Made by a program: the position numbers and the translations under genes
Shown here: in pieces, positions 29,783 to 36,051 of the stretch
Layout of the letters: each line of letters opens with the position of its first letter
How positions within the stretch are numbered: the stretch's first letter is position 1
IMG/VR virus record: IMGVR_UViG_2974563859_000001
DNA length: 64,000 bases
From: a virus
Lineage: Duplodnaviria > Heunggongvirae > Uroviricota > Caudoviricetes
Strand: one strand, 5' to 3'
Notes under the pieces: generated by a model
The model's database searches: none
Seen by the model: only the letters and a program-made list of their open reading frames with translations
What the model was told of the DNA's origin: nothing

Positions 29783-30316
29783 ATGAGTAAATGGACAAAA
29801 AAAGTAGATGTATTTAATGATGCAGAATTTATTTTGGGAAAACCTTATAAAATTATTTTAAGTAATGATGATAAAGAGATTGTCTATGGATTATTGTCTG
29901 ATATAAGTGACTATTCATTGCAATTTATTATTTATGATAGTGATACAGGACATAAGAGAATCTCATTTAATATTCATGAGTTTTTAAATAATGATTTTAT
30001 GATTGTTGAGTTAGATGACGATAATGAATTGGAATTATATTCAGGGCAAATTTATCAGATGATTTATGATACAGAAATTGCTGGTTATATGGTATCAAGT
30101 GGTGCATTTATTAAAATTGATTCAATTACAGAATATCCCAATCGTAAAATATATAATATTACTATTAAGAATAAAGGTTATATAAAAGAATTTAAACTTG
30201 CTAAAAATCACCTTCAAAAAATTAATACAAATTCAATGAAAATTGAAATGAGTGAAGATGAATGGGATAATTTAATTGATTATTCAACTAATAAAGATGA
30301 GGGAGTTGTAGAATAA
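29783..30316 (+). CDS. hypothetical protein, paralog B1
   Basis: MSKWTKKVDVFNDAEFILGKPYKI... Confidence 0.5.
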   Translation: MSKWTKKVDVFNDAEFILGKPYKIILSNDDKEIVYGLLSDISDYSLQFIIYDSDTGHKRISFNIHEFLNNDFMIVELDDDNELELYSGQIYQMIYDTEIAGYMVSSGAFIKIDSITEYPNRKIYNITIKNKGYIKEFKLAKNHLQKINTNSMKIEMSEDEWDNLIDYSTNKDEGVVE

Positions 30317-30444
30317 TGAAATGTCCTGATTGTGAAGGTACAGGATATGATACTTGGTTTGTTGGAGATAAAAAGATACAAGATCATAATACCCCATGTA
30401 TTAATTGTAATGGATATGGTAAAATTAAGGAGGATAATAAATGA
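30316..30444 (+). CDS. small DnaJ-type zinc-finger peptide (42 aa)
   Basis: MKCPDCEGTGYDTWFVGDKKIQDHNTPCINCNGYGKIKEDNK; two CxxCxGxG motifs. Confidence 0.4.
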   Translation: MKCPDCEGTGYDTWFVGDKKIQDHNTPCINCNGYGKIKEDNK

Positions 30445-30935
30445 GCGTTCAGTGGACTAAAAAAGTAGAAATAGATGTATTTAATGGACAAAAATTTAAT
30501 ATTGGTAATGCTTATAAAATTTTTGCAGATAATTCCACTTATACTGGTTTATTGAAAAAAGTTACTGATGATCAATTAGATTTTACAACTCTGAATCATG
30601 ATGTTTTTGTTAGCATTGGTGATATATTAGGTGGTAGTGTAAGAATTATTGAAATGAGCGCATATAATAAAATAGATTATAAACCGGGACAAGTTTTCAA
30701 ATTAATTAGTGGTATGACAATTTGTGGGGAACGAGTCTTTAGTAATTCACTAATAATAATTGATTCCATACTTTTAGGTTCTGAAGGAAAAGATTACTAT
30801 AATATTGTTATTAAAAATAAAGGTCAAATAACGAGAGAATTAAGTATAACTAAAGATAATTTTATAGAAATTGATAAAAACTCAGAGCAAATAAGGATGA
30901 CATCTAATGAATGGAAAAATATACAATTTGATTGA
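30441..30935 (+). CDS. hypothetical protein, paralog B2
   Basis: MSVQWTKKVEIDVFNGQKFNIGNAYKI...; paralogous to 29783..30316. Confidence 0.5.
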   Translation: MSVQWTKKVEIDVFNGQKFNIGNAYKIFADNSTYTGLLKKVTDDQLDFTTLNHDVFVSIGDILGGSVRIIEMSAYNKIDYKPGQVFKLISGMTICGERVFSNSLIIIDSILLGSEGKDYYNIVIKNKGQITRELSITKDNFIEIDKNSEQIRMTSNEWKNIQFD

Positions 30936-31215
30936 TTATCTAAACACAAGTACAAATTCATTAGTAGTGGGAAGGAAATATGGAAAAATCACACGTAAAT
31001 TAATGGACTTAAATAGATTAGATAAAACTACTGATACCATAGATATTATTTTTCCAGATACTATATTTATGGTATCTCCTTCATTCTTTCTAGGAATGTT
31101 TGAAGATATTTTTATACTATTGGAAAAAGAAAAATTTTTAAAAAAATATAATATAGTTTGTACTTTGTTTATAAAAGAATCATTATATAGTGCTATTAAT
31201 AGAGCTATCAAATAG
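30907..31215 (+). CDS. hypothetical protein
   Basis: 102 aa. Confidence 0.4.
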   Translation: MNGKIYNLIDYLNTSTNSLVVGRKYGKITRKLMDLNRLDKTTDTIDIIFPDTIFMVSPSFFLGMFEDIFILLEKEKFLKKYNIVCTLFIKESLYSAINRAIK

Positions 31216-31225
31216 GAGTGTTAAA

Positions 31226-31399
31226 ATGGTTAATATCATAGTACTACTAATTGTTTTATTTTTAATATTTATTGCAACTTTCGTCTATCAAGAATTTGCA
31301 AATACAGGATACGCAATGAGTGATTTTCTAACTGCTATACAAATTATTTCTGGAGGATTAATGTTTTGTATTCTTGCTAAGTTAATATTTGAAATGTAA
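31226..31399 (+). CDS. small membrane protein
   Basis: MVNIIVLLIVLFLIFIATFVY... Confidence 0.4.
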   Translation: MVNIIVLLIVLFLIFIATFVYQEFANTGYAMSDFLTAIQIISGGLMFCILAKLIFEM

Positions 31400-31483
31400 A
31401 TTTATTGTTTAAAAATTGATTTTTCTATAACTAAAATAGAGATTTAGTAACAATTTATCAGAGGAGGAATGTGTAATTGAAAG

Positions 31484-31633
31484 TAATGATTGGTTCAACA
31501 ATGATAGTACTTGCAATCTTATTTCTCTTGTGGTTAGCAATCAGTCCATTATTTGAGAAAATAGGTAGAAGTACCAGAAAAGTAAAAAATAATATTTTTA
31601 AGGGTGATGAGAATGACAGTGAGAAATAAGATT
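31484..31633 (+). CDS. small membrane protein
   Basis: MIGSTMIVLAILFLLWLAISPLFEK...; RBS ggagga. Confidence 0.35.
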
Positions 31634-32419
31634 ATTGGTGGTATCGTTGCAGGAGTAGTATTAATTGCTGGTTTAATTATCTCTATCTTTATGGTTGAGA
31701 AAATTCCAAATGGATATGTTGGTGTAGTTTATTCCCCTAATGGTGGAGTAAAAGAGACTACACTTGATCAAGGTTGGCATTGGATCAAGCCTTTTGATAA
31801 AGTTACAGAATATCCAGTTCGCATGCAAACAGTAAATAATAAAGACATCAAAGTAGCAACATCTGATGGTAAAAACATTGAAATGGATATTGCTTATAAC
31901 TATGTTGTACAACCAGATAAAGTAGTAGATGTATTTAATAAGTTTGGTTCAGTTAAAGTTGAACAAATTGAGAATTCATATCTTAAATCACGTTTATGGG
32001 ATGCCTCTCGTAAAGTGATCTCTAAATATTCAGTAATTGATACTTATGGTCAAAAATCTTCAGAAGCGGCTAGTGAAATTCAAAAAACATTTGCTGAAGA
32101 TATGAAGAAATATGGTTTTATTATTGATGATCTTACTTTAGGTGTGCCAAAGCCAGATAAAGCTACTCAAGATGCAATTGATGCTAGAGTTAAATCTTCT
32201 CAGGAATTAGAACGTTCTCAAACTGAAATCAAGATTGCTAAAGCAGATGCTGAGAGGAAGAAAATTGAAGCTCAAGGTGTTGCAGATGCCAATGAGATCA
32301 TTAAGAAGTCTATGTCTAAAGAAATTATTATGAATAAATGGATTGAAAAGTGGGATGGTAAAATGCCAAAAGCAACTGGTACTAACTCACTTCTTCAACT
32401 TCCTTTAGAAGACAAATAA
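31604..32419 (+). CDS. SPFH / band-7 (stomatin/HflKC-like) membrane protein
   Basis: N-terminal transmembrane helix followed by GYVGVVYSPNGGVKETTLDQGWHWIKPF... Confidence 0.6.
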   Translation: MMRMTVRNKIIGGIVAGVVLIAGLIISIFMVEKIPNGYVGVVYSPNGGVKETTLDQGWHWIKPFDKVTEYPVRMQTVNNKDIKVATSDGKNIEMDIAYNYVVQPDKVVDVFNKFGSVKVEQIENSYLKSRLWDASRKVISKYSVIDTYGQKSSEAASEIQKTFAEDMKKYGFIIDDLTLGVPKPDKATQDAIDARVKSSQELERSQTEIKIAKADAERKKIEAQGVADANEIIKKSMSKEIIMNKWIEKWDGKMPKATGTNSLLQLPLEDK

Positions 32420-32444
32420 CTTTAAAATAGGAATTAGAGTCTAG

Positions 32445-32711
32445 TTGACTCTAATTCCTATTATTAATTTACATAGGAGGATTTTAATGACTGATATTTA
32501 CTATAAGCTGTTATATTATATTAGCGAGAATGGTAAACCAAAAGTAACAGTAGCAACATTACAGTGGTTTGATGAACTTGACGATAATGATAAGTATCTA
32601 AAAGATGAAGATGGGGATGACCTACTGTTTTACAATGAAGAAGAAGCTGTTCAATGGTTATTGGATAATTTTCAAGAAAATGAAATTGATTCAGAATATC
32701 TAAATAAGTAA
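32445..32711 (+). CDS. small acidic protein
   Basis: 88 aa. Confidence 0.4.
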   Translation: MTLIPIINLHRRILMTDIYYKLLYYISENGKPKVTVATLQWFDELDDNDKYLKDEDGDDLLFYNEEEAVQWLLDNFQENEIDSEYLNK

Positions 32712-32722
32712 AGGAAAATAAT

Positions 32723-33031
32723 ATGAATCAAAAAATATTACCAGTAAGAATCGTCTTTACACCTATGTCTAAATGTCCTTATTGTAATGATAAAATGATT
32801 AATCATAATTATCATCTATGTCATATAAATTACAATAATATTAAAGGTACTATGAATATAAGAACTAATGAACAAGGAGAAGAAAACTTATGTTTAAATT
32901 ATTCTCAAAGAAAAATAAACCTAAATTCTGTAAAGAATGTGGTAAGGAATTTATTAGTGAACATTGGGCAGTCTGTCAAAATTGTCTTAAAAAAAGAAAC
33001 TGGTGGTCTTAAAAGTAAAGGGAGGAATTAA
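32723..33031 (+). CDS. small Cys-rich protein
   Basis: CPYCNDK...HLCH. Confidence 0.4.
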   Translation: MNQKILPVRIVFTPMSKCPYCNDKMINHNYHLCHINYNNIKGTMNIRTNEQGEENLCLNYSQRKINLNSVKNVVRNLLVNIGQSVKIVLKKETGGLKSKGRN

Positions 33032-34275: not shown

Positions 34276-34318
34276 AAAGGATAGAGACTAAATATCTCTA
34301 TCCTTTATTTTTTTTTTT
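34276..34318. terminator. bidirectional terminator
   Basis: aaaggatagagac-taaat-atctctatccttt followed by a T11 run. Confidence 0.6.
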
Positions 34319-36051
34319 GTATACTCAAAGACTAAATTTCCACAATCCCAAATTCTATCATAACCAGCTTCTCTCATAATTTGAATTTCTGTTTTATCAT
34401 TACTATAAATTTCTGGAAATAATTCTTTTAATCTTTGTTTTCTATAGTTGTATCTATGTGAAAGACTCAATTTATTTTTATTAAAATACCAATAATTTGG
34501 CTGAGAGTTATGCATAAAGTGAAAGCTATTTTTATGATATACATTTCCTTCTGACCATCTTAAATCAGCATATGTTATGATTTTATTCCAATCATAATTC
34601 TTTTTAAAATAACTGAATAATTTTCCAAAACTACCTATTACATTATAGTCTCTTTCTGTAGCAAATCTACTTAATTCATAGTCATATTTATTCCCTTTTT
34701 GCCCTAAGCTAACTCTAGGTTTACAGAATGTCATTACTGCTACTAACTCATCACCCTCATTCCTTGGATACCATAGTCCCAGTTTAATAGTAGAGTTATC
34801 AGATCCTTGAATATGATTTTTATCTAAAAAATCTCTTTTCACATTATTCTGAATTTCTTCTATATAACATTTTCTAGCATATATTTTTTCTCCATTATTT
34901 AAACCTAAAATATGTTTTATCTTTCCCTTTATAAGTTCTTTATTATCAATCCACTCATTCTCAAATAAATGAATTAATCTTATACCCTTTTCATTACATT
35001 TTTTCAATTTATTTAAATGGTAGTTTCTATCTTTTCCTTGAGATTCACCATGCCAATATAAACCGTTATATTCAATTGCTATTTTCTTTGAAGGTATATA
35101 AATATCCAGTTCTAAACCTTCAAGTATTTTTCTGTCTGATAGAATTACATTAGTGCTATTGGGGAGAATTTGTTTAATATAATCATATAATTCAATCTCA
35201 TCTTTTGAATTATGTTTCTTTAGTTGACATCTAGGACAATCTCTTTTAACTTTTTTACCTCTTGAATTACCATGTAAAATATCGACCGGTCTAACCTCCC
35301 AAGAATAGCCACATGAATGCTCAATAACTATTGGAGTTTTATTATTAATATATCTACTCTTAATTGTATAATCATTACTATTAAATATTCTATAAAAATC
35401 TTCTTTAAAACCATTAGATCCTTTATTTTTTGGATTTTTATTACATATATTACACCTTTTTCTTTTTAGGAAATTAGTTGGTGTAATAAAGAAATTATGA
35501 GAATCACTAGTATTGTGTCTCATCTCAATTTTATCTTGAGAGCTAATATATTCTCCTAATACAGTATATTCATCTCCTACTAAATCATACACTTCTTTAA
35601 TAAACATTTCAGTAGTCTTTGTCTTTTTCCTTTTTATTAGTTTCTTAGTACAATCAGGACATCTTGAACCCTTACTGAGAAAGTCATTAGGTCTTTTTTT
35701 AAACTCCTTATTACAGATGTTATGTCTAAGTAATACTAGTTTAGAACTATTAATATATTCTCCTAATACAGTATATTCATCTCCTACTAAATCATACACT
35801 TCTTTAATAAACATTTCAGTAGTCTTATTTTTTCTTTTAGATATTCTCTCTGATTTATGTAAAGGACATCTATTACCTGCATTTAAAAAGCCATTTGGTG
35901 AGACATAGTATTCATGACTGCACTTTTCATGTTTCATTTTTATTTTATTATTAGTTCCAGTATATTCTCCTAATACAGTATATTCATCTCCTACTAAATC
36001 ATACACTTCTTTAATAAACATTTCAGTAGTCTTTTTAGGCAAAACAATCAT
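34288..36051 (-). CDS. free-standing homing endonuclease paralog (three zinc-finger modules + EDxHD/Vsr-like nuclease)
   Basis: Three near-identical modules: KTTEMFIKEVYDLVGDEYTVLGEY...CP.C. C-terminal IAIEYNGLYWHGE. Confidence 0.65.
   Translation of the reverse strand: MIVLPKKTTEMFIKEVYDLVGDEYTVLGEYTGTNNKIKMKHEKCSHEYYVSPNGFLNAGNRCPLHKSERISKRKNKTTEMFIKEVYDLVGDEYTVLGEYINSSKLVLLRHNICNKEFKKRPNDFLSKGSRCPDCTKKLIKRKKTKTTEMFIKEVYDLVGDEYTVLGEYISSQDKIEMRHNTSDSHNFFITPTNFLKRKRCNICNKNPKNKGSNGFKEDFYRIFNSNDYTIKSRYINNKTPIVIEHSCGYSWEVRPVDILHGNSRGKKVKRDCPRCQLKKHNSKDEIELYDYIKQILPNSTNVILSDRKILEGLELDIYIPSKKIAIEYNGLYWHGESQGKDRNYHLNKLKKCNEKGIRLIHLFENEWIDNKELIKGKIKHILGLNNGEKIYARKCYIEEIQNNVKRDFLDKNHIQGSDNSTIKLGLWYPRNEGDELVAVMTFCKPRVSLGQKGNKYDYELSRFATERDYNVIGSFGKLFSYFKKNYDWNKIITYADLRWSEGNVYHKNSFHFMHNSQPNYWYFNKNKLSLSHRYNYRKQRLKELFPEIYSNDKTEIQIMREAGYDRIWDCGNLVFEYTKKKIKDRDI

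Follow-up and report, generated by a model that had tools for sequence, protein, structure and literature searches.

The DNA analysed here is a 64,000-nucleotide (nt) stretch of a tailed-phage record (Caudoviricetes; IMG/VR record IMGVR_UViG_2974563859_000001), called the window below, and our subject is the region at positions 31226-32419, where two small membrane-protein genes, g179 and g180, precede g181, a gene for an SPFH/band-7 protein. A megablast comparison of window positions 30900-32800 showed 100% identity over the full length to Bacillus phage AR9 (KU878088) and PBS1 and 97.5% identity to vB_BsuM-Goe21, together with 94% identity to vB_BspM_Internexus over part of the query only. 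The source of the window is the Bacillus jumbo phage AR9/PBS1, and AR9 positions are obtained by adding 113021 to window positions. The AR9 GenBank record lists g179 as a "putative membrane protein" (window 31226-31399), g180 as a "putative secreted/membrane protein" (31477-31629), and g181 as a "stomatin/prohibitin superfamily protein, pfam01145" (31613-32419). All three open reading frames (ORFs) were confirmed on the + strand from the ORF list and the sequence. The SPFH gene itself is not a discovery, having been annotated since 2016. What is new is a conserved module, made of a miniature partner and a predicted exported SPFH protein, in Bacillaceae chromosomes, prophages, and large virulent phages; we know of no earlier description of it. 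The features of the locus are as follows.

31477..31629, + strand: g180, a 50-aa predicted single-pass membrane protein with a Lys-rich and then acidic tail, from the ORF and the annotation
31613..32419, + strand: g181, a 268-aa protein starting at ATG 31613, in which a predicted N-terminal signal-anchor helix is followed by the SPFH domain, a helix of 51 residues, and a tail at the C-terminus
31448..31460, + strand: AR9 late promoter TAACAATTTATCA, with AACA at -11 to -8 and the transcription start site (TSS) at A 31460
31463..31467, + strand: Shine-Dalgarno sequence GGAGG, 9 nt upstream of the g180 TTG, read from the sequence
31613..31629, + strand: 17 nt shared by the end of g180 (stop region) and the beginning of g181, from the coordinates
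32426..32462, + strand: intrinsic-terminator-like hairpin with a 16-bp stem, then a T-rich tract, closing the g180-g181 unit
31226..31399, + strand: g179, a 57-aa ORF with two hydrophobic segments, an exact match to the AR9 annotation, outside the conserved module

The first-pass annotation of this DNA had recognised g181 as an SPFH/band-7 protein (HflKC/stomatin-like), and database comparison bore this out, with g181 being of the HflKC/prohibitin kind. g181 matched Pfam Band_7 (PF01145) over residues 30-213 with 126.1 bits (cut-off 23.6, E=2.1e-36) and PHROG_200 with an E-value of 4.5e-79, and its best sequence relatives in the PDB were prohibitin-2 (1.3e-9), prohibitin-1, and erlin-2. We then examined an AlphaFold2 model of g181 (monomer, 31-sequence alignment, mean pLDDT 76). 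It comprises an N-terminal helix (residues 2-25), an alpha/beta SPFH domain (28-177), a 51-residue helix (183-233), and a disordered tail. The low confidence of the C-terminus (237-268) is compatible with ordering on oligomerisation and is not evidence for oligomerisation. In a Foldseek search of the PDB, the model aligned over its full length with the human prohibitin complex 8rrh (9e-15) and likewise with 9o9z, 9vvg, and the HflK/C entries 7vhq and 9cz2; further matches were erlin1/2, HflK/C entry 7wi3, stomatin, flotillin, and QmcA of the QmcA-YbbJ SPFH-NfeD complex (8z5g). g181 is a true SPFH protein, and the model gives it an architecture of the prohibitin/HflK-C/erlin type, which is that of cage-forming SPFH proteins with their bulk on the non-cytoplasmic side.

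We next defined the transcription unit to which g181 belongs. Published differential RNA sequencing (dRNA-seq) of AR9 mapped a primary late TSS at AR9 position 144481 (+), window position 31460, 17 nt upstream of g180, with a step height of 736 that is among the larger values of the table (Table S3, PMC5312081). The unit shows both marks of an AR9 late unit, transcribed by the non-virion RNA polymerase: this mapped TSS, and AACA at -11 to -8, which is common to all late promoters of Table S3 (PMC5312081). As independent evidence the late-promoter motif was dropped; its pattern counts equal chance, and the promoter was therefore assigned from the published TSS alone. The g180 frame starts at TTG 31477, which has GGAGG 9 nt upstream, and bacterial homologues start MKVMIGS with ATG at the equivalent position. 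The alternative start at ATG 31486, lying 18 nt from GGAGG, was rejected on the Shine-Dalgarno spacing and the homologues. The 17-nt overlap suggests that g180 and g181 are translationally coupled. Downstream of g181, the hairpin at 32426-32462 was the only terminator-like site in 2 kb (one found against 0.3 expected in a terminator scan), and its RNA fold had an energy of -23.4 kcal/mol (z = -6.8). The mapped TSS, the Shine-Dalgarno sequence, the overlap, and the terminator together delimit a unit of about 1 kb, running from promoter and Shine-Dalgarno sequence through g180, the overlap, and g181 to the terminator.

The published expression values, in fragments per kilobase per million reads (FPKM) at 5, 20, and 40 min, were 139, 1174, and 2619 for g179; 99, 6069, and 6561 for g180; and 31, 603, and 1651 for g181 (Table S4, PMC5312081). 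These findings indicate that g180-g181 is a late, strongly transcribed, self-contained bicistronic operon. In the related phage Internexus, the region of promoter, g180, g181, and terminator is kept at 94% DNA identity, without g179. As a separate observation, the FPKM at 20 min falls about 10-fold from g180 (6069) to g181 (603) inside one mapped transcript. The fall could reflect enrichment of reads at the 5' end, a transcript that is processed or attenuated close to the overlap, or overproduction of the small partner by design.

The first-pass annotation had placed two small membrane peptides before the SPFH gene. Both hydrophobic ORFs exist, but only g180 is a partner. The positions given for g179 (31226-31399) and for the end of g181 (32419) were exact, whereas the second small ORF spans 31477-31629 and not 31484-31633. 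The overlapping starts described there are real for g180 and g181, which share 17 nt; g179 and g180 are separated by a spacer of 77 nt, and the description thus applies to the g180/g181 pair only. Since this spacer contains the published, mapped late promoter, g179 lies outside the g180-g181 unit. tblastn detected no g179 homologue at the Internexus locus, where the upstream gene encodes a different 167-aa protein, and g179 was missing upstream of the cassette in all other loci examined. g179 matched the AR9-type family phrog_29988 only and had no Pfam match. It was ruled out as a module member by the mapped promoter, the Internexus comparison, and its absence elsewhere. The proposal of a co-oriented, overlapping, membrane-embedded upstream partner with operon-like behaviour holds for g180.

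We then investigated what kind of protein g180 is. A profile search of a collection of 5.8 billion proteins returned 57 relatives, all of 41-66 aa and all named "hypothetical", and every one of them that carries an organism name comes from Bacillaceae or their phages. None of the 57 was a Rosetta-stone fusion of the partner to SPFH or other domains. An alignment of 19 partners (33-58 aa) was nearly gap-free and revealed a common pattern: after 3-5 residues at the N-terminus comes a hydrophobic segment about 20 residues long, usually with W at its end, and then a tail matching [P/GK]..F.K[IV]G....K.KN.F.EE. A clear g180 homologue from a bacterial locus is MKVMIGSIILLVIIGFGLWLMLSPIFKQVGSGAKKFKKSWEEEDQHERK. 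g180 belongs to PHROGs 35614 and 9657, to which PHROG assigns no function, and had no Pfam family; across the 19 family members tested, all Pfam matches were sub-threshold and driven by the transmembrane (TM) segment. Weak likenesses of g180 to YajC (E=0.045) and DUF3899 (E=0.09) were dismissed as TM-driven and below the cut-offs. Whether the small ORFs are translated at all had been raised by the first-pass annotation as a point on which its proposal could fail. For g180, this was addressed by the ratio of nonsynonymous to synonymous polymorphism (pN/pS), which was 0.24-0.32 in seven of eight independent clades and 0.64 in the eighth, where it comes from 13 differences only. These values indicate purifying selection and speak for the g180 family being a translated, constrained protein. 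g180 is a member of an unnamed family of single-pass membrane proteins of 41-66 aa.

Membrane topology was predicted from the positive-inside rule and from homologues. All 11 SPFH proteins examined have 2-8 Lys/Arg before the hydrophobic helix and 0-1 (3 in one protein) within the 15 residues after it. All 19 partners have 0-1 Lys/Arg before the helix and 2-6 after it. By the positive-inside rule, this charge bias predicts that g181 is N-in/C-out, with its SPFH domain outside the cytoplasmic membrane, and that g180 is N-out/C-in, with a cytoplasmic tail. The two proteins are thus predicted to have opposite orientations. Several homologues of g181 carry lipoboxes, namely LAAC and LTAC in some Staphylococcus phages, LTGC in a P1-like phage, TAGC in DL54, AAGC in phiE125 gp43, LTGC in Mydo, and VSSC in a crAss-like phage, which indicates that their SPFH domains are committed to export and independently supports the predicted orientation of g181. 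The N-terminus of g181, MTVRNKIIGGIVAGVVLIAGLIISIFMVEK, has no Cys, suggesting a signal-anchored protein and not a lipoprotein.

To assess how regularly an SPFH gene is paired with a small membrane ORF, we surveyed 70 further viral loci and several annotated phages, deduplicated to 54 distinct SPFH genes of phages, prophages, and Bacillaceae chromosomes. A small ORF was counted when it had 20-130 aa and a strongly hydrophobic segment, and other ORFs of at least 150 aa from the same loci served as controls. A small TM ORF ended at the SPFH start in 49 of the 54 distinct loci, compared with 17 of 195 controls (Fisher p = 2e-31), and lay on either side of the SPFH gene in 52 of 54, compared with 36 of 195 controls (Fisher p = 4e-27); both p-values are overstated because the loci are related and the control set is crude. 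The SPFH proteins of these loci span 31-82% identity. The results demonstrate that the pairing goes beyond chance. In homologous loci, the small-ORF gene as a rule overlapped the SPFH gene or was separated from it by no more than 12 nt.

In every bacterial or prophage context examined, an ORF of 49-59 aa overlapped the SPFH start. In B. velezensis-type chromosomes, the pair stands beside genes for dUTPase, poly-gamma-glutamate (gamma-PGA) hydrolase, and Peptidase_G2, near lexA, and in SPbeta-like prophages it occurs with YorP, YosH, PolIII alpha, and NrdIEF. The small ORF also overlaps the SPFH start in B. sonorensis. Ordinary, non-prophage chromosomal neighbourhoods were found in Fictibacillus, next to phosphoenolpyruvate (PEP) carboxylase, and in Domibacillus, next to PhoX/TatAC. 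Among the phages, the partner adjoining mbpS in Kayvirus and further Staphylococcus phages (MbpV) is longer, at 102-106 aa, Enterococcus Schiekvirus phages have a small TM ORF downstream of the SPFH gene with overlapping stop and start, and PJN02 has an unannotated 24-aa TM ORF. In Jabberwock, Sundance, Porthos, and PJN02, the module lies among DNA-metabolism genes. One Enterococcus-phage locus (L066) had no small ORF on either side of the SPFH gene.

Two further observations concern the chromosomal neighbourhoods. A DUF2512 membrane-protein gene adjoins the pair in both B. velezensis-type (L002, 6859-7308, - strand) and Fictibacillus (L087, 4282-4728, + strand) chromosomes; it is kept despite otherwise different surroundings and may be a further associated gene. 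In the B. velezensis-type locus, the module is beside the phage-like genes for Peptidase_G2, dUTPase, and gamma-PGA hydrolase close to lexA (L002, 1296-5756). AR9 itself encodes a poly-gamma-glutamate hydrolase, g067, and together with the L002 context this hints at an old phage-derived island.

Small ORFs with one or two TM segments that are not g180 homologues adjoin the SPFH gene in P1-like, phiE125, DL54, and crAss-like loci. Two of them were unannotated two-TM ORFs overlapping the start of an SPFH lipoprotein gene: one of 78 aa in a P1-like phage (L094, 1227-1463, + strand) and one of 67 aa in a crAss-like phage (L099, 1248-1451, + strand). The arrangement of a small membrane ORF with an exported SPFH protein may extend to phages of Gram-negative and Bacteroidota hosts with non-homologous partners.

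The distribution of g181 homologues was then determined by tblastn. Of 50,697 phage records, 695 contained a homologue, with about 50 host genera represented, and the suggestion of the first-pass annotation that SPFH proteins are rare in phages does not stand. The leading host genera among the 695 records were Staphylococcus (275), Pseudomonas (64), Bacillus (54), Enterococcus (53), Klebsiella (33), Burkholderia (29), and Erwinia (29), followed by about 40 more; PHROG_200, to which the protein belongs, is a large family. SPFH ORFs of T4-like phages were tabulated already in 2006 (PMC1524935). The labels on the homologues are inconsistent and include lipoprotein, membrane protein, HflK, RIIB lysis inhibitor, transposase, and serine protease.

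In the 5.8-billion-protein collection, the closest relatives of g181 were "prohibitin family proteins" of the B. subtilis group and other Bacillaceae, with 64-82% identity. In a neighbour-joining tree, g181 of AR9 and Internexus fell inside a B. subtilis-group clade together with copies from B. mojavensis, B. velezensis, B. sonorensis, and SPbeta-like prophages; other Bacillaceae chromosomal copies formed the sister of this clade, and the Herelleviridae copies lay far away. The nested position of AR9 g181 indicates that the cassette was captured from the host lineage. The GC content of the cassette is 0.31-0.34 compared with 0.22-0.27 in the flanks, whereas the third-codon-position GC content (GC3) of g181 is 0.19, at the phage level, compared with 0.42 in B. 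velezensis. A recent horizontal transfer, considered because of the raised GC content, is weakened by this phage-like GC3, which indicates that the capture is not recent. The captured cassette later gained a phage late promoter. Taken together, the pair is a mobile two-gene module common to Bacillaceae chromosomes, prophages, and large virulent phages of Firmicutes.

We compared g180-g181 with known SPFH systems. HflK/HflC-FtsH of E. coli, PHB1/PHB2, and erlin1/2 are built in the same order as g181: a TM helix at the N-terminus, the SPFH domain, a long coiled-coil helix, and a tail at the C-terminus. They are its best sequence and fold matches and carry their bulk on the trans (non-cytoplasmic) side, as predicted for g181. 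The differences are that g181 is a single SPFH paralogue and not a member of a hetero-pair, and that its additional 50-aa partner has no counterpart in those systems. In SPFH-NfeD operons, such as QmcA-YbbJ, FloT-NfeD2/YuaF and FloA-NfeD1b/YqeZ of B. subtilis, and Pyrococcus PH1511-PH1510, the pairing is likewise tightly conserved, with a co-transcribed upstream membrane-protein gene. At the AR9 locus, only g180 is a membrane-protein gene co-transcribed directly upstream of the SPFH gene, as judged from the TSS, the 17-nt overlap, and the adjacency in 49 of 54 loci. The g180-family partner differs in having no NfeD/OB-fold domain and only 41-66 aa, and the SPFH domain of g181 is predicted to be exported, while that of FloA/FloT and QmcA is cytoplasmic.

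Kayvirus MbpV-MbpS has the same two-gene architecture. MbpS is a g181 homologue with about 46-49% identity, and MbpV, like g180, is a small protein with an N-terminal TM segment and a charged tail whose gene adjoins that of the SPFH protein. In contrast to g180, MbpV is 102 aa long with an extended helical tail, and no similarity between the two sequences could be detected; MbpS differs from g181 in having a Cys close to where its hydrophobic segment ends, and the Kayvirus pair lies in the lysis region. The "lipoprotein" SPFH proteins of PHROG_200 in Gram-negative phages (P1-like phages, Bruynoghevirus DL54, phiE125 with gp43, Vequintavirinae, and crAss-like phages) belong to the same family as g181 and have an exported SPFH domain. 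Small membrane ORFs are often adjacent, as in AR9, but have two TM segments and are not g180 homologues; these proteins also have a lipobox Cys, whereas g181 has none and keeps a signal-anchor. We conclude that g180-g181 works like an SPFH-partner operon, but with a partner from a new, tiny, unnamed family.

On this evidence, the reading we consider moderately probable is that the late, self-contained g180-g181 operon encodes a predicted exported, prohibitin/HflC-like scaffold together with a dedicated partner, both derived from the host. Under this reading, g181 would be anchored by its uncleaved N-terminal helix, and its SPFH and coiled-coil parts would lie on the outside of the host cytoplasmic membrane. 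Prohibitin, erlin, and HflK/C lead us to expect, by analogy, a ring or cage of g181 enclosing a patch of membrane. g180 would sit in or at this ring in the opposite orientation and supply its only cytoplasmic handle, a short tail that is basic and then acidic; its mRNA stands about 10-fold above that of g181. Late in infection, the cage might sequester or modulate a host membrane client. This last step is put forward tentatively and is on balance improbable, with FtsH as the best precedent, since B. subtilis 168 itself is not known to have an SPFH protein of the extracytoplasmic HflK/C type. To our knowledge, the SPFH proteins of B. subtilis 168 are FloA, FloT, and YdjI only, none of them of the exported HflK/C type.

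Several points weigh against the scaffold-and-partner reading. The score of g181 against the HflC equivalog TIGR01932, 19.8 bits with a cut-off of 134.4, is so far below that cut-off that g181 is not an HflC orthologue, and oligomerisation, contact between g180 and g181, and any link to FtsH are drawn by analogy only. The g181 model is of moderate confidence, falls below a pLDDT of 50 at the C-terminus, and describes a monomer built from a shallow alignment. g180 could insert N-in or could serve as a signal peptide. The adjacency statistics come from phylogenetically related loci and a crude control set of raw ORFs, and the neighbour-joining tree has no bootstrap. One lineage of 16 contigs with identical SPFH C-terminal sequence (the L038 type) has no small ORF: its upstream region has been replaced (near L038:2300-2500), and the SPFH N-terminus becomes MEKPNTRK. 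The loss of the small ORF in this lineage shows that the partner is not strictly required, and as a natural partner-less variant the lineage is useful on the question of whether the partner is required. In addition, a literature search on phage SPFH proteins, covering the papers in the searchable library, found annotations and speculation and no experimental study. The nearest case is an SPFH protein of a Pasteurella prophage island examined as a virulence factor (PMC9872710).

Among the other explanations, superinfection exclusion or an envelope shield survives best. Here, a layer of exported SPFH protein with its partner would block DNA injection or receptor access of competing phages, in the manner of membrane and lipoprotein superinfection exclusion (Sie) proteins. 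The first-pass annotation had suggested superinfection exclusion as one role, alongside manipulation of membrane proteolysis, and either may apply. The predicted position of the SPFH domain outside the membrane and the lipoprotein nature of many homologues agree with where Sie proteins are typically located. The module is also present in prophages (SPbeta-like elements and contigs of about 20-60 kb of the viral collection) and next to phage-remnant genes in B. velezensis-type chromosomes. However, the AR9 pair has a late promoter and low expression at 5 min, while exclusion functions of virulent phages are usually early, and the same pair occurs in ordinary chromosomal contexts with no phage genes nearby. 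g179, g180, and g181 had no match to PADLOC defence models at E<=0.1, and membership in a known defence system was rejected on this basis. We regard exclusion as unlikely.

Quite improbable, in our assessment, is a role as a helper of lysis timing or secretion, in which the scaffold would organise or restrain holin, endolysin, or Sec-dependent lytic enzymes late in infection and the partner would be holin- or antiholin-like. Late expression in AR9 agrees with such a role, as does the position of Kayvirus mbpV-mbpS, which is flanked by lysK (endolysin) and tgl (transglycosylase). A published study likens MbpV to holins and speculates that MbpS aids Sec-dependent export of Tgl (PMC7150955). The annotated amidase (g020) and putative holin (g082) of AR9 are nevertheless far from the module, the modules of Jabberwock, Sundance, Porthos, and PJN02 are not among lysis genes, and the chromosomal copies have no lysis context.

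The pair could also be a passenger, a cassette taken over from the host that does nothing specific when AR9 infects. Its closest relatives are bacterial and prophage copies with 74-82% identity, and the AR9 copy falls in a host-lineage clade. This explanation is made very unlikely by the amelioration of GC3 to phage values (0.19, against 0.42 in B. velezensis), the gain of a phage-specific late promoter with strong transcription, the retention of the pair in AR9, PBS1, Goe21, and Internexus, and the persistence of related modules in hundreds of virulent phages.

The resemblance to NfeD-SPFH operons that the first-pass annotation had seen, with both g179 and g180 acting together with the SPFH protein, is hardly credible: the three genes are co-oriented and close together, an upstream membrane protein is the classical partner of SPFH genes, and QmcA-YbbJ (8z5g) is among the fold matches, but neither peptide matches NfeD (no NfeD/OB-fold match at E<=0.1 for g179 and g180, nor at E<=1 for 19 g180-family members), both are too short for the OB-fold domain of NfeD (50 aa in g180), and g179 is outside the mapped g180-g181 transcript and is not kept with the module anywhere else.

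Returning to the scaffold with its dedicated partner, a broader and rather unlikely extension is that the pair represents a distinct, hitherto undescribed "NfeD-less" class of bacterial and phage SPFH scaffold. With it, large virulent phages (AR9, Kayvirus, Schiekvirus, and Bastille-like phages) and prophages would enclose some machinery of the host membrane from the outer side, such as FtsH or a portal for injection or secretion. If so, the module would bear on the control of membrane proteolysis or on the exclusion of rival phages during infection. Few membrane organisers are as widespread as SPFH scaffolds or as little understood, and a compact two-gene version is present in hundreds of phages, including Kayvirus therapy phages, as well as in prophages and Bacillaceae chromosomes. 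A phage SPFH gene by itself is no surprise to a specialist; the module is well defined, widespread, and directly testable, and the g180-g181 unit, being well delimited and simple to clone, lends itself to the question of how a late membrane cage would benefit a phage. Recognising the unit also corrects the labels "lipoprotein", "RIIB lysis inhibitor", "transposase", and "serine protease" on homologues, and it flags an unnamed family of small proteins often missed by gene callers.

Some observations were made on neighbouring genes of the window. AR9 g176 (29783-30316) and g177 (30441-30935), both on the + strand, are tandem paralogues with 36% identity (E=2e-25) and belong to no Pfam family. 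The N-terminal pattern of g176/g177 recurs in Internexus gene 59, which takes the place of g179 upstream of the cassette. The gap between g176 and g177 is filled exactly by an unannotated 42-aa Zn-ribbon ORF (30316-30444, + strand), MKCPDCEGTGYDTWFVGDKKIQDHNTPCINCNGYGKIKEDNK, with a sub-threshold match to DnaJ CXXCXGXG (E=2e-5, 25 bits against a cut-off of 32.7). The AR9 record annotates several similar "Zn finger" genes and leaves this ORF out. Further downstream, a 587-aa ORF on the - strand (34288-36051) corresponds to AR9 g188, annotated as a "Hef-like homing endonuclease", and contains three copies of an N-terminal module of about 75 aa (KTTEMFIKEVYDLVGDEYTVLGEY...).

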